A stretch of 64,000 nucleotides of DNA from an uncultured archaeon. Lineage in GTDB: Archaea > Aenigmatarchaeota > Aenigmatarchaeia > Aenigmatarchaeales > Aenigmatarchaeaceae. The position numbers and the translations under genes were made by a program. Below the pieces are notes generated by a model that worked only from the letters and a program-made list of their open reading frames with translations, searched no databases and was not told the origin of the DNA. Shown one piece after another: positions 4,482 to 27,446 of this stretch. The stretch covers positions 43,696 through 107,695 of the forward strand of contig CAZSPB010000001.1 in assembly GCA_964608725.1 (NCBI GenBank), read 5' to 3'. How positions within the stretch are numbered: the first letter of the stretch is position 1; each line of letters starts with the position of its first letter.

Positions 4482-5300
4482 ATGAATTATAAAATATTAT
4501 TCCCGCTTTTGTTTTTAGTTTTTTGTATGGTATATTTGGTTTACCAAGTAACTACTGTAGGCCTTAATTTAGATATAGATTTGAAAGGTGGTACTCAAAT
4601 ACTAGCAGAATCTTCGAAACCTTTAGATGAGAAGGAACTTGAAAATGTTTTGAAAGAATATGATGCCTCTGTTAGAAGTGCCAAAGGAGTGAAAGCTTAT
4701 TCTATTTTCATAGAGTTTGATGCAAGTATAAATCCTGAAAATGTTATAGAAACTTTAGAAAAAAATGGATACAAATTTGAAGATTATTCTGTACAAACTA
4801 TAGGTCCTGCTTTAGGTAGTGCTTTTCTTCAACAAGCAGTTTTTGTTTTAGTTATAGCTTTCATATTTATGGCCGTAACAGTTTTCATAATTTTCAAAAT
4901 ACCACTCCCAAGTTTTTATCTAATCTTAACTTCATTTTCTGATATAATCGAAACTTTAGTGATAACACAAATTCTAGGAATAAAGCTCTCTTTAGCAACT
5001 TTTGCATCCCTCCTCTTGCTTGTAGGATACAGCGTTGATGATAATATTTTGCTTACAACTAGAGTTTTGAAGAAAGCTGGGGGTGATATAGAAACTGAAA
5101 TTAAAAATACTAGAAAAACTGGATTCACAATGATGGGTGCAACTATAGTTGCATTATTTGCACTTTTCATAATTTCAACATCTGTTGTAATAACTCAAAT
5201 TGCTTCAGTTCTCTTGATAGGTTTATTAATAGATTTGGTAAACAGTTGGGTGTTAAACACAAACTTGCTAAGATGGTATGTTAAGAGGAAGATAAAATGA
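4482..5300 (+). CDS. secF: Protein-export membrane protein, SecF-like
   Basis: 272 aa. The LDIDLKGGTQI motif matches the SecD/SecF periplasmic motif, followed by several TM helices. It is immediately followed by the partner gene, with a 4-nt overlap. Confidence 0.7.
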   Translation: MNYKILFPLLFLVFCMVYLVYQVTTVGLNLDIDLKGGTQILAESSKPLDEKELENVLKEYDASVRSAKGVKAYSIFIEFDASINPENVIETLEKNGYKFEDYSVQTIGPALGSAFLQQAVFVLVIAFIFMAVTVFIIFKIPLPSFYLILTSFSDIIETLVITQILGIKLSLATFASLLLLVGYSVDDNILLTTRVLKKAGGDIETEIKNTRKTGFTMMGATIVALFALFIISTSVVITQIASVLLIGLLIDLVNSWVLNTNLLRWYVKRKIK

Positions 5301-6973
5301 AGGAATTGCTTAAAGAATGGAGAATTTGGCTAGTTATAGTTAGCTTAATAATTGCAATTTACTTGATATCGCCTTTTCCTCAAAAAGGAGTTATAGTCAC
5401 TTACATCTCAGAAGATTCTCCATTTAAGAACAAAATAGAAATTGGGGAAACCATAACATGGGCAAATGAAAAAGAAATAAGCTCTCCTGAAGATTTTTAT
5501 TCTTTTGAAAATTATACTGGAACTTTTAGGTTCATTCATTCTGGAAAATTAGATTTAGTTAATATAGAAAAGCCTGGGCTTGGAATTATTGTAAAAAAGA
5601 AGCCTTTTTCCAATTTGCAGTTTGGTTTAGATTTAGTTGGAGGAACAAGAGTTTTACTAAAACCAAAGGGAAATGTTAGTGATGCCACTATACAACAAGC
5701 TATAGCAACCTTAGAAACTAGAATAAATATATTTGGCTTAAAAGAAGCAACTTTCCAACCTGTAAAAGATGTTGCTGGGAATAGATACATTCAAATAGAG
5801 ATGGCTGGAGGAACAAAAGAAGAGGTTAAAAGTTTGTTGGCAAAACAAGGGAAATTCGAAGGAAAAATTTTGAGAACTATAATTTTCAAGAATAAAACTG
5901 GAAGTATAAAGTTGATGAATAATCATTTAATAGAACTTCTTGATCATGAAATAAAAATAAATGGAACTGTGTTAAAAGAGAATGAAACTTCAAAGCTTGA
6001 AGGGGTTGATTTTCAAGTTTTAAACTTAACTCAAGAAAATGTAACTTTAGCTTTTACAGTTTTTACTGGAAGAGATATTCAATCAGTATGTTTACAAGAT
6101 CAGCCAGGAATTTGTGTTTCAAGAACTATAAGGCAAATGGGAGGGTGGCAATTCAACTTCCAAGTTTTCATATCCCAAGAAGGAGCTGAAAAATTTGCAA
6201 AAGTTACGAATGGGATGGAAGTTATAACTGATCCAAGAACAGGAGAAAAGTACTTAGATGGAAAAATTTCTTTATATCTAGATGAAAAGTTGATAACAGA
6301 ACTTAACATAGCTTCAGAGTTAAAAGGCCAAGCCTATACAACTCCTGCTATAACAGGTTTTAGAAAAACTAGGAGTGAAGCTATAAAAGAGCAATTAATG
6401 CTAAAAAGTATTTTGCAATCAGGAGCTTTACCAACAACTGTTGAAATAGTAAGAATTGATGAAATTTCTCCAGCTTTAGGAAGAGAGTTTTTTGAATCAG
6501 CAATACTTTCAACTTTCATTGCTTTAGTCGCAGTTGCTTGTGTGATTTACTTTAGATATAGAAACTTTAAGATATTATTGCCAAACATCCTTTGGAGTTT
6601 AATAGAGTTGATATTAACTTTAGGTGGTGCCGCTTTGATAAAATGGACTTTAGATTTATCTTCTATAGCAGGAATAATAGCTGGGATAGGAAGTGGAACT
6701 AATGATCAAATTATGATAATAGATGAAATATTAGCTGGTGGTGCAAAAGAAGAAGAAAGATTTTACACTTTAAAACAAAGGATAAAGAGGGCATTTTTCA
6801 TTATATTTGGTTCAGCTGCAACTGTAGCAGCATCAGTTGTTCCTATGATGTTTATTGGAATAGGAGCTATGAAAGGTTTCGCAGTTACCACTCTTCTTGG
6901 AATATTCATTGGTGTTTTCATCACAAGGCCTGCTTTCAGCATAATTGCTGAAAGGATATTAAAGAAGAGCTAA
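5297..6973 (+). CDS. secD: Protein-export membrane protein, SecD-like
   Basis: 558 aa. GLDLVGGTRVLLKP motif, a large periplasmic domain, and six C-terminal TM helices of RND-like topology. Confidence 0.7.
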   Translation: MKELLKEWRIWLVIVSLIIAIYLISPFPQKGVIVTYISEDSPFKNKIEIGETITWANEKEISSPEDFYSFENYTGTFRFIHSGKLDLVNIEKPGLGIIVKKKPFSNLQFGLDLVGGTRVLLKPKGNVSDATIQQAIATLETRINIFGLKEATFQPVKDVAGNRYIQIEMAGGTKEEVKSLLAKQGKFEGKILRTIIFKNKTGSIKLMNNHLIELLDHEIKINGTVLKENETSKLEGVDFQVLNLTQENVTLAFTVFTGRDIQSVCLQDQPGICVSRTIRQMGGWQFNFQVFISQEGAEKFAKVTNGMEVITDPRTGEKYLDGKISLYLDEKLITELNIASELKGQAYTTPAITGFRKTRSEAIKEQLMLKSILQSGALPTTVEIVRIDEISPALGREFFESAILSTFIALVAVACVIYFRYRNFKILLPNILWSLIELILTLGGAALIKWTLDLSSIAGIIAGIGSGTNDQIMIIDEILAGGAKEEERFYTLKQRIKRAFFIIFGSAATVAASVVPMMFIGIGAMKGFAVTTLLGIFIGVFITRPAFSIIAERILKKS

Positions 6974-11824: not shown

Positions 11825-13030
11825 TTAAGAATAAAATATTTGCTCAAGAAGTTTTTTCAACTTCCTAAAAATAGTTTTTGATAGGTTTATACTAACTACC
11901 CTTGTTCTTCCATATCTTCCTTTTGAAACTATTTTAGCATTTATTATCCCAAAAAGATCAAGTTCACTTATAAGATCTGAAATCCTTCTTTGAGTTAATA
12001 CTTTAAGGCCTTGTTCTTTACATATTTCTTGGTAACAATCAAAAATGTCTCCTGTTTGTATTTCTTTGTTCTTTTCAGCAAGCCTTAATATAGCATAAAG
12101 TACAGCTTGGCTTTGTTTTGGTTGTGTTTTGACTGTTTCAATTATCCTATCTAAATCTATTTTTTCATGGGCCATATCTACATGAGCAACTCTAACTTTG
12201 TCTTCTCCATTTCTTTCTGCTAATTCTCCAGCTACTCTCAAGAGATCCAAAGCTCTTCTCGCATCCCCATGCTCTTGAGCTGCAAGAGCTGCACATTTTT
12301 CTATAACCCCCTCTTCTAAAACACCCGGCTCAAAAGCTATTTTTGCCCTTTCCCTTAAAATATCTTGAAGTTGTAAAGCATTGTATGGGGGAAAAATTAG
12401 TTCTTCTTCACTGAGCGAACTTTTTATCCTTGGATCTAAAGTTTCAATAAAGCTTAAATTGTTTGTTATTCCTATTAAAGAAACTCTAGAATTATGAAGC
12501 TCTTGATTCATTCTTGTTAAATTATAGAGTATTTCATCACCTGTTTTATTTATAAGAGCATCTATTTCATCAATAATAATTATAATAATTCCTTTATTCT
12601 CTTCTAATGTTTGAAAGAATGTATTGTATACTTTATCTGTTGGGAGCCCAGTAAATGGAACTTCTCTACCAAGCATCCTAGATAATTCAGCCAATAATCT
12701 ATATTCAGTATCTGCAACCCTTTTCATTTTACAGTTCACATAAAGGGTTTTAACTCTTTGGCCATTACAATTACTTATCTCTTCTAATTGGGATCCAACA
12801 TATCTTGAAACTAAAGTTTTTCCTGTTCCAGGCCTCCCATACAAGAAAATATTGCTTGGCCTTTGCCCTTTCAAAGCAGGTGCTAATATTCTACTAAGAT
12901 CATTTATCTGTCCTTCTCTATGGGGTATTGTTTCTGGAGTAAATGATATTGTTAAAGCATTTCTATTCTTAAATATTGGTTTAGATTCAAGAAATTTCAT
13001 AAAAATGTTATTATTCAATTCCCCTTTCAT
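11825..13030 (-). CDS. cdc6: Orc1/Cdc6 replication initiator
   Basis: Walker A LYGRPGTGKT, Walker B IIIIIDEID, sensor motifs, and a C-terminal winged helix. The likely start is the second Met (MKGELNN..., ATG rc at 13028-13030). The ORF track extends to 13120. Confidence 0.9.
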   Translation of the reverse strand: MKGELNNNIFMKFLESKPIFKNRNALTISFTPETIPHREGQINDLSRILAPALKGQRPSNIFLYGRPGTGKTLVSRYVGSQLEEISNCNGQRVKTLYVNCKMKRVADTEYRLLAELSRMLGREVPFTGLPTDKVYNTFFQTLEENKGIIIIIIDEIDALINKTGDEILYNLTRMNQELHNSRVSLIGITNNLSFIETLDPRIKSSLSEEELIFPPYNALQLQDILRERAKIAFEPGVLEEGVIEKCAALAAQEHGDARRALDLLRVAGELAERNGEDKVRVAHVDMAHEKIDLDRIIETVKTQPKQSQAVLYAILRLAEKNKEIQTGDIFDCYQEICKEQGLKVLTQRRISDLISELDLFGIINAKIVSKGRYGRTRVVSINLSKTIFRKLKKLLEQIFYS

Positions 13031-13103
13031 AGAAAAAACCTCTATTTCTTTTGAAAGTAAATACGTGAAGTTATATATTTTTTTCTTCACGTTAACCCCT
13101 TTA

Positions 13104-13170
13104 TTTCCTGTGAAGTTCATATGAAGTTTTTTCTCAAATCACACCCTATTTTTTCCTGTGAAATCTCCAG
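13104..13170. promoter_or_regulatory. Two direct mini-ORB-like boxes (TTCCTGTGAA) upstream of orc1/cdc6; candidate origin or autoregulatory element
   Basis: tttcctgtgaag at 13104-13115 and ttcctgtgaaatctccag at 13153-13170. They resemble the archaeal mini-ORB core TTCCAGTGGAAA and the TTCACGTGAA iterons at 23.7-24.1 kb. An AT-rich stretch follows (13171-13287). Confidence 0.4.
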
Positions 13171-13287
13171 AAGAAATAAAAATTTGAAAATTTTTTAGAA
13201 CCTTTATTTCTTATAACAATGTTAATATTTATATATAAGAATAATTTTGGAAAAGTAATTACTTGTTCGACAAGAAATTAAGGGGAG

Positions 13288-21602: not shown

Positions 21603-22166
21603 ATGCGTGCTTTTGTTGGGATTCCAATACCAGAAAAGCTAAAACCAAAGATAGTTAAAATTCAAGAGAGGTTTTCTAGGTTTGATATTAAGCTAGTTGA
21701 ACCTGAAAATTTGCACTTCAACTTAAAATTTATTAAGGAGATAGGAGAAGATAAGATCGAAGTTTTAAAAAAAGAAATCGAAAAAGTTGTAAGTATTTTT
21801 GAACCTTTTTCTCTAAAAGTAGCAAGTTTTGGAGTATTCCCAAATGAAAAGTATTTAAGAGTTATCTGGTTAGGTGTTAAAGATGGTAAAGAGACACTTA
21901 TAGCGTTAGCAAAAGAAGTAAACAATTCTCTTGAAAAGTTTGGTTTAAGAAAAGAGGCCAAGTTTGTACCACATTTAACTTTAGGGAGAGTTAGAAGTGG
22001 AAAGAATAAAGAAGAAATACTAAGAATAATAGAAGAATTGAAAGATGTTGATATAGGTGAAATGAGAGTTGAAAAAGTTGTACTTTTCAAATCAACTTTA
22101 ACTTCTAAAGGCCCTATATATGAAGAAATATTCTCAGTAAATCTTGGGAGTAAAGAAAAATGTTAA
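21603..22166 (+). CDS. 2'-5' RNA ligase / 2H phosphoesterase (LigT/ThpR family)
   Basis: Two H-x-T/S-x motifs, LHFNLKF and PHLTLGRV, in a 187-aa protein. Confidence 0.7.
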   Translation: MRAFVGIPIPEKLKPKIVKIQERFSRFDIKLVEPENLHFNLKFIKEIGEDKIEVLKKEIEKVVSIFEPFSLKVASFGVFPNEKYLRVIWLGVKDGKETLIALAKEVNNSLEKFGLRKEAKFVPHLTLGRVRSGKNKEEILRIIEELKDVDIGEMRVEKVVLFKSTLTSKGPIYEEIFSVNLGSKEKC

Positions 22167-22199
22167 ATTTACCTAAGAATTAATAATTTTTAGATTAAA

Positions 22200-22394
22200 A
22201 TGGTAAGCCTAATTAACAAATTAGATGTACCTTTACTAGGCATAGTTTACATAGTTAGTGTTATTATAGTTTTCTTATACTATTATGAAAAAATTGATCT
22301 AGGATTTTTAACTCTCATCTCTTGGTTTATAGTTTTGCTTGGTGCATTAGGATTTGTATGTTATGTTTTCAAGAAGGTTAGTAAAACAAGATAG
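22200..22394 (+). CDS. Small membrane protein (64 aa)
   Basis: ORF track; two hydrophobic helices. Confidence 0.3.
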   Translation: MVSLINKLDVPLLGIVYIVSVIIVFLYYYEKIDLGFLTLISWFIVLLGALGFVCYVFKKVSKTR

Positions 22395-22620
22395 GGTATT
22401 TTGTTTTCATACTTTCTAATAACCTTTCAGAAATAGCAAGATCTATTTTCATATCCATTTCAGCTAACTTTAACAGTTCGATAATTTCATCTTCCAACAG
22501 CTTTTCTTTACCTATAACGTAAACACGTCTTCCATTTTCTTCTCTAACTTCTATCTTTTTTCCTTTTTTTATACTTTCATATAACTTCTCCAAAGGCCTA
22601 TATTCTTTTGGTAAGTTCAT
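22378..22620 (-). CDS. Hypothetical protein (80 aa)
   Basis: ORF track; charged and helical, no motif recognised. Confidence 0.3.
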   Translation of the reverse strand: MNLPKEYRPLEKLYESIKKGKKIEVREENGRRVYVIGKEKLLEDEIIELLKLAEMDMKIDLAISERLLESMKTKYPILFY

Positions 22621-22663
22621 ATTTATAATTACTATTTGGTAGTATATAAATTTACTACTAGAA

Positions 22664-23053
22664 GTGGTAAAGAATGTTTATCATCCCTCTTTTCTTATTC
22701 ATTTTATGAACTTATTAAAAATTTCAGTTATAACATCTATCATAGGATTAATTCTACTTTTTCTTTTTGCTAATTCTCTTACAAAAGAAGTAACAAAAAT
22801 ATCTTCTCTTAAAATCGGCCAAATAGCAAGAATAACAGGGATGGTCACATCTTTTTATCATAGTAAAAAAGGTCACATCTTTTTGAAAGTTGCTGATAAT
22901 ACTGGAGAGATAGATGTAGTAGTTTTTAACAGTTCAAAAGAAATAGAAAAAGTTAGAAATCTTGAGTTAGGAGACGAGGTTGATATAATAGGGAGAGTTG
23001 AAGAGTATAAGGGTAAAAAGGAAATAATACTTAGAGAAATAAGAAAAATTTAA
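22664..23053 (+). CDS. Membrane-anchored OB-fold nucleic-acid-binding protein
   Basis: N-terminal TM helix, then an OB-fold pattern ITGMVTSF...IFLKVADNTGEIDVVVF...GDEVDIIGRV. Confidence 0.5.
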   Translation: MVKNVYHPSFLIHFMNLLKISVITSIIGLILLFLFANSLTKEVTKISSLKIGQIARITGMVTSFYHSKKGHIFLKVADNTGEIDVVVFNSSKEIEKVRNLELGDEVDIIGRVEEYKGKKEIILREIRKI

Positions 23054-23078
23054 ATATAACTGAGTAGTAGTAAATAAT

Positions 23079-23285
23079 ATGGAAACTAAAGCGAACTCTC
23101 CTTATGATGCAATAAAGAGGCACTTAGAAGAAGTAAGATATGAGGGCGTTGATAGACTTCAAAAAGTTGTTAGAGGCTCAGGTTTTGATGTTGGTATTGA
23201 AATTATTTACAGTATCTTAAGGAACATGGAAGGAGCAGGTGAAATAAGAAGGACAGGGGACGTTGTAGAGTGGATAGGCACTTAG
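23079..23285 (+). CDS. Small hypothetical protein (68 aa), possible winged helix
   Basis: ORF track. Helix, then a GxG turn, then a beta hairpin (RRTGDVVEWIG). Confidence 0.3.
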   Translation: METKANSPYDAIKRHLEEVRYEGVDRLQKVVRGSGFDVGIEIIYSILRNMEGAGEIRRTGDVVEWIGT

Positions 23286-23596
23286 ATTATGTGTTTTATT
23301 CTTCTCTTTACTTCCCAGTAATGCAATACATCTTTTGTTGTTAAATTTTCTTTTCCTTTTTTCAGTTTTATTATCCTAATACCCATAAACCTACCCTTTT
23401 CGTCTCTATAACCCAGATTTTCAACAAAGTACTCTAGAAAATGATCTATATAATAAGTAAGAGTTGAGATTGGAAGATGAGTTTCTTTTGCTAAATTTCT
23501 TAACCAAATACCATCTTTGTACATTCTTAAGACTCTCAAAATTATTTCCACCTTTTTAGGATCAGGGCCTATAGGTCTTCCGCCTCTTCTTTTCAT
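23282..23596 (-). CDS. Winged-helix DNA-binding protein (104 aa)
   Basis: LRNLAKETHLPISTLTYYIDHF is HTH-like, and basic N and C termini. Transcribed divergently from the iteron array. Confidence 0.4.
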   Translation of the reverse strand: MKRRGGRPIGPDPKKVEIILRVLRMYKDGIWLRNLAKETHLPISTLTYYIDHFLEYFVENLGYRDEKGRFMGIRIIKLKKGKENLTTKDVLHYWEVKRRIKHII

Positions 23597-23740
23597 ATTT
23601 TTTCACTAAGTTTTTTGAACACTGTTCAATAAAAGTTTTATGTAATCTTTAATATTAATATTTTTCCTTTTTCTCTGATATTTTTTCGTTTATTGTCGAA
23701 AAAAACATTGTTTTATAATCGTCAATAAACGACTAAAATG

Positions 23741-24091
23741 TTCACGTGCATGTTCACAAAACCTTCACACTTTCACGTAGGAACTATGAAAATCTTCTCT
23801 CAATTAACTCACACATTATACTCATTTTATAATCAAAAAGAAAATTTTATTAAAAATGAAATGTAACATAAAATTATGTTCACGTGAACTTCACGCGTGA
23901 AGATGTGAACTTCACGTGAACTTCACAAAATCTTCACGTGAACATCATGAACTTCACGTTAATGTTCACAAAATCTTCACGTGCAAAACTAATCTTCACG
24001 TGAAGATAGCAATTTCTCGAAGAAAAACAACGAAATATTTAAATATTTAATTCACGTGAATATATACAAGTTCACGTGAACTTCACATGAA
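23741..24091. repeat. Iteron array of at least 12 copies of the palindromic decamer TTCACGTGAA and close variants
   Basis: Perfect copies at 23879, 23911, 23933, 23995, 24051 and 24071. Variants: ttcacgtgca (23741, 23976), ttcacgtagg (23772), ttcacgCGtgaa (23890), ttcacgttaa (23953), ttcacatgaa (24082). Half-sites (ttcaca) at 23751, 23763 and 23965. Spacings are about 11 or 19-23 bp, i.e. helical-turn multiples. The array ends at the start codon of the downstream AAA+ gene. Confidence 0.85.
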
Positions 24092-24109
24092 CATTTTGGT
24101 GTGAATATC

Positions 24110-25210
24110 ATGGTTAATGAAAATAAGGATATCTCAAAATGGGGCTGGAATGCCAACCCATTTGTATTAAAAATTGATCCTAAATTATTTGTTGGTTATG
24201 AAGAACAAATCGATGCAATAAGGAGACATATAAAACATAAACATAAAATAGCTTTGATAACAGGCCGTACAGGCTCAGGAAAAACAACTTTTTTGAAATG
24301 GTTAGAAACCCAGTATGATACAGCTAAAATATATGTGAGTAAACCCCCAAAAAGACCTGAGGAATTTGTATCTTTATTTACTGAGATTTTTGGGTTTAGT
24401 TTTTTCGAAAGATTATTAAGAAGAAAGCCTAACCTTTATACTTTACCGAACTATATTAATAAAAAATTAAAGGGAAATCATTTAGTTTTTTTGTTAGATG
24501 AGGCCCATGAGACAGAGAGAGATGTTTTAGAATGGTTAAGAGTTCTTACTGACCAAATAAATGAAGTGAGCTTAGTAATGGCTGGCTTACCTGTGATGGA
24601 AGGAAAAATAAAAACAGAGTTAGAGACATTAGATCAAAGAATAACAACAAGAATATCTCTCACTTCTCTTGATTTAGAAGAGACAAAAGAGTTAATAAAG
24701 AAAAGAATAGAATCTGTTGGTGGCAAAGGAACATATCCTTTCACAGATTCTGCTATAGAAAAGATATACGAGAAAACAGGAGGGTTTCCTAGAGAGATTT
24801 TAAAGCTTTGTGATAGACTTATAAACACAGCTTTAGAAAAAGGCTTGGACATTATAGATGAAAAAGCAGTAGAAGAACATAAAGAAATAGAGCTTCCAAA
24901 AGTGAGATTAGAAGAGCCAGTTGTCACTTTCATGCCGAAACCACCTTCAGAAGAACAAATAAGAAATTTGCCTTATAAACAAAGAAAGATTTTAGAGCTA
25001 TTAGCTAGAAAAGACTGGCTCACACCTACAGCTATTGTAGAAGAGTTAGGGATAGCAGATAACTACAAGTCAAAAGGCCATGCTATAAGATCAATAAACA
25101 ATATCTTGAAAAGACTCATGCTTGAAGGTTATGTTCAAAGAGAATCTAGAGGAAAAGCTTTTATGTATGCTTTAACACCAAAAGTAAAACCATTTTTTGT
25201 TCAAGCTTAA
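24110..25210 (+). CDS. Orc1/Cdc6-like AAA+ ATPase with C-terminal winged helix (second initiator paralog)
   Basis: Walker A ITGRTGSGKTT, Walker B LVFLLDEAHE, an N-terminal segment GYEEQIDAIRRHI resembling the Orc1 Rx(E)Q(I) region, and a C-terminal wH (GYVQRESRGKAFMYALT). The ORF track starts at GTG 24101; ATG at 24110 is more likely. Confidence 0.7.
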   Translation: MVNENKDISKWGWNANPFVLKIDPKLFVGYEEQIDAIRRHIKHKHKIALITGRTGSGKTTFLKWLETQYDTAKIYVSKPPKRPEEFVSLFTEIFGFSFFERLLRRKPNLYTLPNYINKKLKGNHLVFLLDEAHETERDVLEWLRVLTDQINEVSLVMAGLPVMEGKIKTELETLDQRITTRISLTSLDLEETKELIKKRIESVGGKGTYPFTDSAIEKIYEKTGGFPREILKLCDRLINTALEKGLDIIDEKAVEEHKEIELPKVRLEEPVVTFMPKPPSEEQIRNLPYKQRKILELLARKDWLTPTAIVEELGIADNYKSKGHAIRSINNILKRLMLEGYVQRESRGKAFMYALTPKVKPFFVQA

Positions 25211-25422
25211 TCTTTTGTGAGACTTTTAAGATTCAGTATCCTTTCTGCAAGGGATAACTCGTTAATTTCTCTTCTAGGAAGGCCTAAAGCTATGCCAACA
25301 TATTCTGTTGGAAAACTTTTCTTTCCTTCAGGCCCTTTGAAAGTGCAATAATCACTATTTACATGAGTTTCGTAAGAGTTTAGGGCAGTATAAATTATGT
25401 TTTCAAGCTTTTTGTATTCCAT
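25207..25422 (-). CDS. Hypothetical protein (71 aa)
   Basis: ORF track; no motif recognised. Confidence 0.25.
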   Translation of the reverse strand: MEYKKLENIIYTALNSYETHVNSDYCTFKGPEGKKSFPTEYVGIALGLPRREINELSLAERILNLKSLTKD

Positions 25423-25496
25423 ATTAATTACTTTGAAGTAGTAATATATAAAGATAACGTTTGAAGTAATAATAATTTAAAAAGGAAAAATATTGT

Positions 25497-26057
25497 ATGC
25501 GAAAATTAATTTTGATAGTTGGATTGCCTGGTAGTGGAAAAACTACTGTCGCAGAATTCATAAAAAAACATTTTAATGCTTATATTCTTCACAGTGGTGA
25601 TGTAATAAGAGAGGAAATTAAAAGAAGGGGTTTAAAATATACACCTGAAAGTGATATGTTAATTGCTCATTGGTTTCATACTCACGGAAGAGAAAAGTTA
25701 ATAGCAAAAAGAGTATGGGAAAAGGTTAAAAAAACAAAGAAAAACATAGTAGTCATCGAAGGTTTTAGATCATTAAAAACTGTTAATCACTTTAAAAGAA
25801 TATCCAAAATAACACCCATAATTATAGCTGTTGAAGCAAGCTTTAAAGTGAGAGCTGAAAGAGAGTTAAAAAGAAAAAGATTTGGGAAAAAAGAGAGTAT
25901 AGAATATTTAAAGGCTAGAGAAAAGTTAGAAAGAAAGCACGGGATAATAAAATTAATAAAAAAAGCAGACTTTAAAATCAATAATTCAAGGATGACTAAA
26001 AAACAAACAGAAAAGAAAGTTGTGGAGATTTTAAAAAAAGTTCTTGAATCAAAATAA
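25497..26057 (+). CDS. P-loop nucleotide kinase-like protein (AAA_17 / dephospho-CoA-kinase-like)
   Basis: Walker A LILIVGLPGSGKTTVAEF at the N-terminus, in a 186-aa protein. Confidence 0.55.
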   Translation: MRKLILIVGLPGSGKTTVAEFIKKHFNAYILHSGDVIREEIKRRGLKYTPESDMLIAHWFHTHGREKLIAKRVWEKVKKTKKNIVVIEGFRSLKTVNHFKRISKITPIIIAVEASFKVRAERELKRKRFGKKESIEYLKAREKLERKHGIIKLIKKADFKINNSRMTKKQTEKKVVEILKKVLESK

Positions 26058-26102
26058 ATTTAAATATACAAACTAAAGATATACTAGATAAGGTGAATTT
26101 TT

Positions 26103-26360
26103 ATGGAGATTGTAAGAGCAAAAGATTTAATTGGTAAGGTTATTGTTTCTAGTGATACAGGAAAGAAATTCGGTATAGTTGGTGATGTGAATTTTATAAC
26201 AGAATCAGGAGAATTGATGAATTTGATAATTTCTGAGCCAACAAAACAGGCCCTAGAGCTTAAACTTTCTGAAGATGAGAAAGGCAGGCTTTTAATACCA
26301 TTTTCAGCTGTAAAGTCTGTTGGAGATTTCATTGTTGTTTCAGAGAAGGACATCGTTTAA
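26103..26360 (+). CDS. PRC-barrel domain protein
   Basis: 85 aa. LIGKVIVSSDTGKKFGIVGDVNF pattern and a C-terminal beta region. Confidence 0.5.
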   Translation: MEIVRAKDLIGKVIVSSDTGKKFGIVGDVNFITESGELMNLIISEPTKQALELKLSEDEKGRLLIPFSAVKSVGDFIVVSEKDIV

Positions 26361-26489
26361 TAAAATTTGATTAATTTTTTTATTTTTCTTTAGTTAGTTT
26401 TTCATTTCTGAATTCTTCTATAATTAATGAAAATAACTCATAATCGTTAGTCTCAAATTTTCCTGCCTTTAAAACGTACTTCTCTTTCA

Positions 26490-27446
26490 TTATTTCCCTT
26501 TTGGATCTCTTATTCCTTCAGGAGTAATGACAAATACTGTTTCACCTTCTGGTAAAGATGGACTATCTACAACTCTAGCAATTCTTGTATTGCCTCTAGA
26601 CTTTCTTAAATAAAGTCTATGAGTACTAAAGTGACCTAGAATATGACCACCAATTGGTGCTGTTGGATCACCAAATAGTATATCTGGTCTTGCCATAACT
26701 TGGTTTGTAATGTAAACAGCAATGTTATATACATCCGCAAGTCTTTGTAAAGTGTGAAGATGCCTATTGAGTTTTTGTTGTCTTAAAGCTAACTCTCCTC
26801 TACCAGTATAATCTACCCTAAAATTTGAGGTTACACTGTCAACAATCAGAAGTTTAACATTTTTTTCTTTTATTAATTCACTTGCTTTTTCAGCAAGTAT
26901 CATTTGATGGTCAGAATTATAACATCTAGCAACATAGATATTATCTAAAACCTTTTTTGGATCTAAACCTAAAGCTTCGGCCATTTGTTTTATTCGAGAT
27001 GGTCTGAAAGTATTTTCCGCATCTAGGAAAAGGCACCCTCCTTCTAAACCACCTTCTTCTACAGGTAATTGAACATTCACAGCAAGCTGGAAACCAATTT
27101 GTGTTTTTCCAGCACCAAATGCACCATGAAATTCTGTAACAGCAAGAGTTTCTATACCCCCTCCTAATAAACGGTCAAGATTTTCACTTCCAGTTTTAAT
27201 TTTACCAATATTCTTCCTTTTTTCTAATACATCAGTAGCTTTTTCAAAACCTATTTCTAAGGCCTCTCTTGCAGCATTTATTATTTTTGAAGCAGTTGTC
27301 TCACCTATTTCTGCTATACTTGAAAGTTCCATGGGTGATGCAGCAGCAATAGCCATTACATCAATATACCCAGCATTTCTCAGTTTATCTGCTATTTTTT
27401 CTCCTACTCCAGGAAGATCAGATATATCTTTAATTTTCTTACTCAT
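26490..27446 (-). CDS. radA: RadA recombinase
   Basis: N-terminal HhH domain ([12 protein letters not shown]...), Walker [10 protein letters not shown], Walker B LLIVDSV. The start at the second Met avoids overlap with the upstream gene's stop. Confidence 0.9.

Follow-up and report, generated by a model that had tools for sequence, protein, structure and literature searches.

Phased palindromic sites upstream of an AAA+/winged-helix gene in Aenigmatarchaeota: a possible assembly platform and operator in the vicinity of the canonical origin region

In an uncultured archaeon of the phylum Aenigmatarchaeota, a dense array of short palindromic sites lies directly upstream of a gene for an AAA+ protein, within a 64-kb stretch of DNA that is referred to below as the window. 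This raises the question whether the array is a replication origin bound by the adjacent protein as a second Orc1/Cdc6 paralog, which the preliminary description had considered the most economical reading, or whether it serves some other function. The analysis presented here suggests, with a probability of roughly one half, that the array functions both as assembly platform and as operator of the neighbouring protein, which would build an origin-proximal complex. The elements of the locus are as follows.

23597..24109, unstranded: whole intergenic control region, 513 bp, the second-longest intergenic region of the window
23687..23731, unstranded: distal imperfect inverted repeat cgtttattgtcga / tcgtcaataaacg flanking AACATTGTT, read from the sequence
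23741..23781, plus strand: cluster A, four same-orientation TTCAC half-sites at 23741, 23753, 23764 and 23772
23782..23878, unstranded: spacer 1, 97 bp, 19% GC, with 0 TTCAC sites and one CTCAC variant at 23808
23879..24004, unstranded: cluster B, 15 half-sites including the palindromes at 23879, 23911, 23933 and 23995
24038..24049, plus strand: TATA-like element TTTAAATATTTA with perfect palindromes on both sides
24051..24105, unstranded: cluster C, operator-like, located past the TATA element and before the start codon
24110..25210, plus strand: 366-aa AAA_22 AAA+ ATPase with a lid and a C-terminal MarR-like winged helix, according to profile, structure-match and alignment evidence

The region 23741-24105 contains six perfect copies of the decamer TTCACGTGAA (at 23879, 23911, 23933, 23995, 24051 and 24071), four one-mismatch copies of the substitution type (at 23741, 23953, 23976 and 24082) and 25 half-sites. 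The perfect decamer occurs neither elsewhere in the window nor in any of 100 shuffles, and the sites are confined to this locus and not spread in the manner of a general transcription-factor site. The earlier count of at least six one-mismatch copies was too high, a fifth being located outside the array at 13086 next to orc1; the other sites of the array are half-sites and one insertion variant, TTCACGCGTGAA, at 23890. Cluster A starts with the one-mismatch decamer TTCACGTGCA at 23741, cluster B also holds the one-mismatch decamers at 23953 and 23976 together with the insertion variant, and cluster C is made up of the perfect palindromes at 24051 and 24071, TTCACATGAA at 24082 and a GTGAA at 24101. 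Two copies do indeed abut, forming the string GTGAACTTCACGTGAACTTCAC at 23906-23926, and the array runs towards the start codon as described, ending 5 bp 5' of the ATG at 24110. The distal inverted repeat (23687..23731) is a degenerate version of the palindrome TAACANTGTTA, which also occurs upstream of orc1 and of which better copies can be found at the loci L001, L004 and L018 as well as in orc1 upstream regions.

Spacings of 11 and 20-22 bp separate the sites, and over the 355 bp from 23745 to 24100, the dyad centres, 19 different ones, keep a helical register with a period of about 10.6-10.7 bp and a resultant of 0.77, a value reached by none of 2000 random placements. This bears out the previous view that spacings of about 11 and 21-22 bp place the sites on one face of the helix. 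With regard to the AT-rich intergenic region of about 500 bp likewise put forward, the length is correct but the additional AT-richness is not, since the region has a G + C content of 28% compared to 25% in the other intergenic DNA of the window. G + C content is 34-44% in the site clusters and 19-22% in the spacers, with a genome value of about 30%. Spacer 1 is a candidate unwinding or bending segment, and in relatives the corresponding gaps of the arrays are occupied by CTCACA elements. The TATA-like element is kept as AAGCTTAAATAT in relatives, the GC-rich ones having an identical layout, and the palindromes proximal to this promoter support the autoregulatory operator that had been named as an alternative. 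An Rfam scan of positions 22000-26500 gave no meaningful match, and a structured RNA is therefore unlikely.

The protein encoded at 24110..25210 contains Walker A and B motifs and a C-terminal winged helix, just as initially reported, and is an AAA_22 ATPase of the MuB/TniB/ExeA type within the initiator clade of AAA+ proteins. It matches Pfam AAA_22 at 1.6e-13 (51.5 bits, gathering score 27) and a PHROG family annotated as 'DNA transposition protein' at 6.5e-21, and MuB is its top sequence match among solved structures. Walker A (K58) and Walker B (D130/E131) are intact, with conserved arginines, the ATPase motifs being invariant across homologs, and the extra helices between strands 2 and 3 that characterise the initiator-clade AAA+ fold are present. 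This fold is equally near to TnsC, MuB and Orc1/Cdc6, all of which oligomerise on DNA, and can be aligned to Sulfolobus Orc1-1 and Orc1-3 over 265-278 residues. The label 'Orc1/Cdc6-like' is thus appropriate for architecture and fold but not for the sequence family, and an Orc1/Cdc6 paralog in the strict sense has to be abandoned. With the Orc1/Cdc6 model TIGR02928, whose cutoff is 181.3 bits, the protein scores 15.1 bits (E 0.008), neither Cdc6_lid (PF22703) nor Cdc6_C (PF09079) has a match in the protein, and the isolated C-terminal domain is nearest to MarR/ArsR regulators, with no Cdc6 winged helix among the best 60 matches. Archaeal Orc1/Cdc6 proteins nevertheless share with it the initiator-clade AAA+ base, the lid, the C-terminal winged helix, and a gene position beside a long intergenic region that is packed with presumed sites and has autoregulatory potential.

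The best profile match of the ATPase module is the PEP-CTERM-associated family TIGR03015 (8e-29), and the lid motif GGxPR, typical of ExeA, is present as well. Unlike ExeA/GspA and the TIGR03015 proteins, however, the archaeal protein stays below the equivalog cutoff (100.9 bits against 324.5), carries a DNA-binding winged helix in place of a PG_binding (peptidoglycan-binding) domain, and is encoded among replication and repair genes. ExeA functions in the assembly of secretins and is not known to act on DNA, and its place among the closest sequence relatives counts against the DNA-acting role that is favoured here. At E<=1e-10, 9725 library proteins match the AAA_22-type ATPase, and those sampled have TPR plus zinc-ribbon or peptidoglycan-binding domains. 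Archaeal winged-helix ATPases of the PF01637 type, such as Pyrococcus PABY2304 and Sulfolobus SSO1545, are weak sequence matches below the Pfam cutoff, and we know of no site array for either of them. PADLOC returned generic P-loop matches only, so the locus is not a recognised defence system.

MuB, TnsC and TniB form ATP-dependent filaments or rings on DNA, and the presence of these transposition proteins among the closest ATPase relatives, together with iterons beside an initiator-like gene, would be in line with an integrated element, plasmid-like or transposon-like, of which the locus is the rep-iteron module. But in contrast to the MuB/TnsC/TniB systems the archaeal protein has a predicted sequence-specific winged helix fused C-terminally and a dedicated site array upstream, and the locus, which is fixed in its chromosomal position, comprises neither a transposase gene nor transposon ends. 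There is also no integrase gene or tRNA target nearby, the tRNA scan having placed the sole tRNA of the window at 52.8 kb. Moreover, housekeeping flanks are common to 58-67 of the 80 species-level loci (LigT in 62, the PRC-barrel gene in 67, RadA in 61 and RPA in 58), further neighbours being an OB-fold protein and a kinase; protein identities of 40-86% across the phylum are consistent with vertical inheritance; and there was no match in 2.9 million viral contigs. With the chromosomal gene order kept phylum-wide, an integrated element, also named as an alternative at the outset, is very improbable.

Dense arrays, for which the threshold was set at 10 or more strict half-sites in 400 bp of upstream DNA, are found at 58 of the 72 Aenigmatarchaeota species loci with enough upstream DNA for scoring, with a median of 15.5 strict half-sites per 400 bp upstream of the gene in comparison to 4 elsewhere in the same loci. 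Pooled same-strand spacings peak at 11, 22, 31-33, 41-42, 52 and 62-63 bp, and the resulting period of about 10.4-10.7 bp, maintained over 350-450 bp, indicates that across the phylum, too, the sites lie on one helix face. The arrays contain 20-35 phased half-sites, and the consensus derived from them is perfectly palindromic, position 7 being T in 61% and G in only 9%. In every lineage the array follows the AAA_22 gene and not orc1. In a metagenome scan, this gene adjoins the match at 13 of the 24 matching loci, the remainder being other dense arrays at the end of the stored DNA and isolated single matches. A non-canonical one-face array that is tied to the adjacent AAA+/winged-helix gene, as the preliminary description had it, therefore stands.

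The linkage of array and gene, and their co-variation, lead us to propose the adjacent protein as the putative reader of the array. In a clade in which H324 of the recognition helix is replaced by N, half-sites are kept (26 vs 29) and perfect palindromes are lost (0.35 vs 3.1 per locus), although this change may represent a single evolutionary event. In distant homologs from Lokiarchaeia and Nanoarchaeia, different repeats (TAGWCA, GACAWWTGTC, ATGGAGTT and TAACA) are located upstream of the same gene. A divergent ORF next to the control region was considered as an alternative source of the array binder:

23282..23596, minus strand: 104-aa ORF, helix-turn-helix-looking by eye

It has no match in Pfam, NCBIfam, PADLOC or PHROG, and being kept in just 21 of the 80 loci, as opposed to the near-universal array, it is the weaker candidate. 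Similarly, the 89-aa ORF at 26084-26353 on the minus strand was discarded as a conserved partner, as it is the antisense frame of a PRC-barrel-like gene on the plus strand.

A different candidate reader is the canonical Orc1/Cdc6 protein, which is encoded in the same window and has its own origin-like region.

11825..13030, minus strand: canonical Orc1/Cdc6 with strong Cdc6 domain matches, followed by an OB-fold gene and PolB; its start was corrected to Met31 of the ORF beginning at 13120
13031..13287, unstranded: region resembling a canonical origin, with ORB boxes, in front of the true orc1/cdc6
13086 and 13116: array-type sites TTCACGTTAA and TTCATATGAA, respectively, in the orc1 upstream region
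13095-13114, minus strand: ORB TTCACAGGAAATAAAGGGGT, part of 13031..13287
13143-13162, minus strand: weaker ORB copy, part of 13031..13287
13273-13286, plus strand: inverted ORB AGAAATTAAGGGGA, part of 13031..13287

These local ORBs, located beside orc1-PolB, have G-rich tails and are inverted. The kinship between the array and the boxes upstream of orc1, noted before, is real, and these boxes turn out to be the core of the canonical ORBs: the decamer and the local ORB core TTCACAGGAA share the TTCAC..GAA frame and agree at 8 of 10 positions, and dyad symmetry is a common property of array and ORB/mini-ORB sites. Accordingly, the array could be a mini-ORB-like cluster bound cooperatively by the canonical Orc1/Cdc6, with the adjacent gene as a conserved neighbour or co-factor, a reading to which the array-type sites inside the orc1 upstream region would also lend themselves. 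The counterpart of the array would then be the second ORB cluster of Thermococcales, the one located in dp1. Pyrococcus Cdc6 binds to each of the two ORB/mini-ORB clusters near cdc6, and binding of Methanothermobacter Cdc6-1 to multiple 13-bp mini-ORBs is cooperative (PMC1904270). The array consensus, however, is palindromic with T at position 7 and lacks both GGAAA and a G-rich tail, and 20-35 half-sites in strict 10.5-bp phase are unlike the few ORBs of 20-36 bp at ORB origins. The association with the AAA_22 gene instead of orc1 in every lineage, the unrelated repeats before the same gene outside the phylum, and the correlation of the recognition-helix change with the motif change likewise argue against this explanation, which we regard as rather improbable. 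As the ORB core differs at two positions only, canonical Orc1 could still bind the array, alone or in addition.

In the reading considered most probable, assembly platform and operator, one winged helix would bind per TTCAC half-site and a palindrome would be read by two protomers, with ATP-dependent AAA+ contacts polymerising the protomers along one face of the DNA into a filament-like or wrapped complex. Where the protein occupies palindromes next to the TATA box and the start of transcription, negative autoregulation would result, and the complex itself may be the output, because sites outside the locus are rare. It would reside 11-15 kb from the canonical Orc1-ORB origin, inside an island of replication and repair genes (PolB, Orc1, Toprim genes, ribonucleotide reductase, RadA and RPA). 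The rarity of outside sites and this origin-proximal position are the reasons why we read the array as an accessory element, involved in the control of replication or in organising the chromosome locally, instead of a primary origin. The orc1 ORB region is about 10.5 kb from the array in the window and 10.5-15 kb in every genome examined, orc1 and the AAA_22 gene are 11-15 kb apart in five genomes, and the control regions of the two genes face each other in the three genomes for which orientation was worked out. On the near-complete contig Ga0366824_1000001 (740,627 bp), for instance, the array is located at about 344.3-344.9 kb and the region upstream of orc1 at about 358.3-358.6 kb.

Could the array nevertheless be a genuine origin of replication, be it the main origin or a second one, at which a non-Orc AAA+/winged-helix protein initiates? 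The initiator would in this case oligomerise on the phased iterons, melt the adjacent AT-rich segment and recruit MCM. Clustered putative initiator sites next to an initiator-type gene, the initiator-clade fold with lid and winged helix that aligns to Sulfolobus Orc1-1/Orc1-3, and the location within the replication/repair island agree with such a function, and the 11-bp-period arrays resemble the low-affinity DnaA box arrays of E. coli oriC. DnaA, too, combines an AAA+ module with a DNA-binding domain of its own and has sites in its own promoter, and in both systems an AT-rich region at one edge accompanies an array that templates a filament, as is proposed here for the archaeal locus. But DNA-binding domain and box sequence are unrelated, the host is an archaeon with Orc1 and a family-B DNA polymerase, and unwinding is known for the DnaA side only. 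Where the genome has about 50% GC, a stretch of 100-130 bp with 10-25% GC and phased CTCACAAA repeats is found at the distal array edge, the promoter lying proximal, and in some clades blocks of half-sites in opposite orientation flank a central gap; both features might be expected of an origin. This AT-rich stretch might just as well be intergenic or terminator DNA of the usual kind.

With regard to strand composition, cumulative GC skew in the 64-kb window is dominated by gene strand without a V shape at 23.9 kb, AT skew within the window shows nothing, and a gene-strand-corrected regression puts the best GC3 switch at 25 kb with a plateau at 23.5-31 kb (F ~5.9, weak and uncorrected for multiple testing), a signal that is not significant and is not counted as support here. 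Evidence against an origin is that the ATPase is of the ExeA/MuB type and not Orc, that the winged helix is of the transcription-factor type, that the Lokiarchaeia and Jingweiarchaeum homologs have repeats of merely operator size, and that a separate, classical ORB region by orc1-PolB is so close in every genome examined, which weakens the case because two origins that near to each other would be largely redundant. The array is therefore probably not the main origin, and origin function of any kind appears unlikely, if conceivable. The exclusion of a primary origin could be wrong, since 20-35 phased sites, an AT-rich stretch and an initiator-type ATPase do look origin-like.

To our knowledge, DnaA and Orc1/Cdc6 are the sequence-reading cellular replication initiators known so far. 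We consider it a speculative possibility that in Aenigmatarchaeota, and perhaps in other archaea with this protein family, a MuB/ExeA-type AAA+/winged-helix protein that is not an Orc1/Cdc6 paralog acts as a sequence-specific initiator, polymerising on phased iterons and either firing a dedicated origin or licensing the neighbouring Orc1-ORB origin. If true, cells would have a third type of replication initiator in addition to DnaA and Orc. The protein comes from a different branch of the initiator ATPase clade and is fused to a transcription-factor-type winged helix.

Direct repeats that build a large complex, in conjunction with palindromes or inverted repeats autorepressing at the own promoter, and short phased repeats are also features of iteron Reps (RepA, pi, TrfA) and of partition operators (R1 ParR-parC, TP228 ParG, omega), even though these are plasmid-borne, lack an AAA+ module and differ in repeat lengths and DNA-binding folds. 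R1 parC, the TP228 ParG sites and the heptads of the omega protein consist of short repeats in phase, placed on both sides of the promoter of the respective operon, and are centromere and operator at once. The matching layout of the array suggests that it might be a centromere-like or chromosome-organising site by the origin, doubling as operator of the nucleating protein, with the complex marking or positioning the origin region for segregation or folding. The conserved distance of 11-15 kb to the origin region is reminiscent of bacterial parS sites, and in one clade a second mini-array is found beside LigT, just beyond the 3' end of the convergent gene, where a promoter is not evident. The winged helix shows a marginal match (E 0.17) to the centromere-binding protein AspA. 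On the other hand, no gene for a ParA/SegA-type motor is linked to the locus, and we know of no AAA+ protein that binds a centromere, so that this role, too, is improbable. The decamer is identical to the 10 bp in the centre of the parS consensus of bacteria, TGTTTCACGTGAAACA, which is probably a coincidence; a bacterial ParB-parS system was rejected, as the identity is limited to these 10 bp, the flanks are unlike parS (C, G or A, not T), and no ParB-like domain (Pfam) was detected in the adjacent protein.

Searches of the literature on origins in Aenigmarchaeota/DPANN and on archaeal ExeA/MuB-type AAA+ proteins gave no description of this module. Whatever its role, i.e., auxiliary origin, replication regulator or centromere-like organiser, an unusually regular array with one half-site per helical turn has been kept beside a canonical origin for as long as an archaeal phylum has existed. 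It provides a defined putative protein-DNA pair from an uncultivated DPANN lineage that can be expressed and examined in vitro, a natural template for how DNA phasing sets AAA+ filaments, and a sequence landmark for the origin region in metagenome-assembled Aenigmatarchaeota genomes. Isolated decamers also occur elsewhere in related loci, several of them within conserved coding sequence, where they are probably codon-driven.

The 64-kb window has a G + C content of ~30%, and the best-matching counterparts of its genes come from metagenome-assembled genomes of Candidatus Aenigmatarchaeota (DPANN). Within it, the perfect decamer TTCACGTGAA occurs six times (23879, 23911, 23933, 23995, 24051 and 24071), always upstream of the ATPase gene, with no further copy outside this array and none in 100 shuffles. 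When one mismatch was allowed, the search of the 64 kb added four copies in the array (23741, 23953, 23976 and 24082) and a single one outside it (13086); the near-copies of the preliminary description are thus present, but number four in the array rather than six or more. The TTCAC/GTGAA pentamers of the array (n = 25) fall into three clusters:

23741-23781, half-site cluster
23879-24004, half-site cluster
24051-24105, half-site cluster

The spacers between these clusters have a G + C content of 19-22%, and the 19 distinct dyad centres stay in helical register throughout 355 bp, spacers included, at a 10.6-10.7 bp period (resultant 0.77, reached in 0 of 2000 random placements). The intergenic region of 513 bp had been described as AT-rich; its G + C content is, however, 28% as compared to 25% in the other intergenic DNA of the window. 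Two isolated TTCATATGAA decamers (30782 and 31920) are situated within or close to genes for the ABC transporter and CbiM/CbiQ; in AT-rich DNA, both have probably arisen by chance. It is possible that the array is a centromere-like site. Its decamer (23879-24080) is identical to the middle 10 bp of the parS consensus TGTTTCACGTGAAACA from bacteria, but the bases on either side differ, and no ParB adjoins the array.

The ORF at 24110-25210 codes for 366 residues that match Pfam AAA_22 (1.6e-13), the NCBIfam model TIGR03015 for ExeA-like ATPases (8e-29, yet far under the curated cutoff), a PHROG whose annotation reads 'DNA transposition protein' (6.5e-21) and, amongst solved structures compared by sequence, MuB (E 1e-4). 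The Orc1/Cdc6 model TIGR02928, whose cutoff is 181 bits, gives it 15, and neither Cdc6 lid nor Cdc6 winged-helix domains were detected by domain-profile searches. Therefore, the earlier designation 'Orc1/Cdc6-like' is right with respect to architecture and clade but wrong with respect to family. Invariant in the family alignment are Walker A (G52..K58), Walker B (D130 E131), the arginines R177 and R181, and the lid motif GGFPRE (R228).

The ATPase is found with 60-86% identity in many Aenigmatarchaeota assemblies, and 80 species-level loci encoding relatives of 40-79% identity were compared. For 72 loci, 900 bp or more of DNA preceding the gene was available; in 58 of these, a 400-bp segment in front of the gene contains at least 10 strict half-sites. 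The median is 15.5 as opposed to 4 elsewhere in the same loci, and most of the lower-scoring loci have variant half-sites, e.g., TTCAT or CTCAC. Spacings between sites on the same strand, when pooled, peak at 11, 22, 31-33, 41-42, 52 and 62-63 bp and hence show helical phasing across at least six turns. As LigT (62/80), a PRC-barrel gene (67/80), RadA (61/80) and RPA (58/80) are kept as neighbours, the module sits in a conserved chromosomal neighbourhood and cannot be a mobile element. When metagenomes were scanned for GTGAANTTCACGTGAANTTCAC, 24 loci matched. The ATPase gene adjoins the match in 13; the remaining dense arrays stand at an end of the stored DNA, where the presence of the gene cannot be judged, and the rest are isolated single matches. 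Hence, wherever it can be judged among these 24 loci, the dense array does not occur apart from the ATPase gene, and viral contigs contained no match to its motif. No description of this module of gene and array was found in the literature searched. It joins known principles, namely an AAA+ ATPase of the initiator clade, a winged helix, iterons and an autoregulatory operator, in a combination not filed under any known family.

In the window, the neighbour conserved in 67 loci is an 85-aa protein (26103-26360, plus strand) that looks like a PRC barrel, and PRC-barrel proteins have been associated with archaeal cell division. The 89-aa ORF on the minus strand (26084-26353), a serine-rich antisense frame of this gene, is probably spurious. 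Mini-arrays of 4-6 half-sites are present in three homologous loci (L056 ~2770-2850, L069 ~2860-2930, L067 ~1095-1165), beside LigT and 1.5-1.8 kb further upstream than the main array, just beyond the 3' end of a convergent gene and with no promoter evident.

A TATA element is conserved as AAGCTTAAATAT (in the window TTTAAATATTTA at 24038-24049), flanked on both sides by perfect palindromes in close relatives and by half-sites in a clade of ~50% GC genomes. In two further loci (L013 4227-4985, likewise L014), a 252-aa ORF of the homing-endonuclease type with two LAGLIDADG-like motifs lies exactly between array/promoter and the ATPase start codon, making an operon, and the array remains with the promoter. 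Since the L014 contig (JBHIEE010000119.1), labelled 'Aminicenantia bacterium', carries the archaeal locus of L013, it is probably mis-binned.

In the mechanism that is best supported, the winged helix of the ATPase would read TTCAC, a palindrome being taken by two protomers. The phasing would set successive protomers on one face of the DNA, so that the AAA+ modules could polymerise, presumably in an ATP-dependent manner, and palindromes around the TATA box, when occupied, would repress the ATPase gene. Oligomerisation on DNA is known for MuB, TnsC, DnaA and Orc. Sites beyond the array locus are rare: the rest of the 64 kb has no perfect decamer, and the other 10-kb loci contain few. The functional output therefore seems to be the large protein-DNA complex itself.

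Conservation of the motif goes together with that of the recognition helix YKSKxHAIRSVNNIL. In 17 loci (L037, L040-L043, L046, L048, L052, L057, L058, L062, L068, L071, L074, L075, L078 and L079) N replaces H324; here half-sites are kept (26 versus 29 per locus) and still phased, whereas perfect palindromes, which are centred on CACGTG, are nine-fold fewer (0.35 versus 3.1 per locus) and almost absent. Substitution and palindrome loss may represent a single evolutionary event. Full-length homologs from outside the phylum have different repeats upstream of the same gene:

L105, Jingweiarchaeum (Nanoarchaeia): GACAWWTGTC palindromes at the TATA box
L106: TAGWCA, nine copies, mostly 12-13 bp apart
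L113: ATG[GT]AGTT, eight copies, 11 bp apart
L114, Lokiarchaeia: ATGGAG, two copies
L115: TAACA-rich region of 580 bp

Repeats that differ in this way are what one would predict for proteins that each bind in front of their own gene. In L106, a second TAGWCA cluster (4671-4743) lies beside a small gene weakly matching an MCM winged-helix domain.

A true Orc1/Cdc6 is encoded at 11825-13120 on the minus strand (Cdc6_C 1.6e-28, Cdc6_lid 1e-27), followed by an OB-fold gene and then PolB. According to the N-termini of homologs, its start codon is probably Met31 at position 13030 and not 13120, which exposes a 257-bp upstream region (13031-13287) with two direct ORBs and an inverted one about an AT-rich centre:

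13095-13114, minus strand, classical ORB TTCACAGGAAATAAAGGGGT
13143-13162, minus strand, weaker ORB copy
13273-13286, plus strand, inverted ORB AGAAATTAAGGGGA

Located beside orc1, the OB-fold gene and PolB, this region is likely to be the canonical oriC; equivalent GGAAAT..GGGGT boxes precede orc1 in three more genomes. The TTCCTGTGAA boxes reported before orc1 are indeed related to the array motif, but constitute the core of canonical ORBs. ORB core and array decamer have TTCAC..GAA in common, in the same frame and at 8 of 10 positions, whereas the array is devoid of the GGAAA and the G-rich tail of the ORB and has T instead of G at position 7. Array-type sites also occur in the orc1 upstream region (TTCACGTTAA at 13086, TTCATATGAA at 13116) and twice in the homologous locus L108. 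It is also possible that the array sites are bound by Orc1 in the manner of mini-ORBs, a situation with precedent (PMC1904270).

The distance between orc1 and the AAA_22 gene is 11-15 kb in five genomes, and both genes are divergent with their control regions facing each other in the window, in the 740-kb contig (Ga0366824_1000001) and, judging from the coordinates, in the contig of locus L010. In the window they belong to a DNA-metabolism island:

8211-29000, part 1: PolB, OB-fold protein, Orc1, HTH_3 protein, CBS protein, two Toprim proteins
8211-29000, part 2: two TldD/PmbA proteins, ribonucleotide reductase, NrdR, LigT, OB-fold protein, ATPase
8211-29000, part 3: nucleotide-kinase-like protein, RadA, RPA, histone

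That the array itself is a replication origin appears less likely, but three features keep this reading in play. It resembles DnaA-type phased box arrays, the best GC3-skew switch of the 64-kb window falls, without being significant, at 23.5-31 kb, and ~50% GC genomes have a stretch of 10-25% GC with phased CTCACAAA repeats at the distal array edge, although the promoter lies on the proximal side. What is favoured over a primary origin is an accessory element close to the origin, acting in replication control or chromosome organisation, since the textbook Orc1-ORB origin region is only 10.5-15 kb away, the winged helix of the ATPase is of the regulator type, and the repeats of two distant homologs are no larger than an operator.

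In L096 (~5225-5355) and its equivalents L063, L061 and L081, all from ~50% GC genomes, the AT-rich stretch comprises 100-130 bp and is followed by 2-3 CTCACAAA-type repeats with 11-bp spacing; central array gaps are also filled, by CTCACA elements. Another palindrome, (A)TAACANTGTTA(TA), is shared by the DNA upstream of orc1 in four genomes (window 13214-13224; L108-L110) and the distal array edge in L001, L004 and L018 and, degenerate, in the window (23704-23712). Taken by itself, the window has no more copies of it than chance would give. The palindrome may be the site of another factor common to both control regions.
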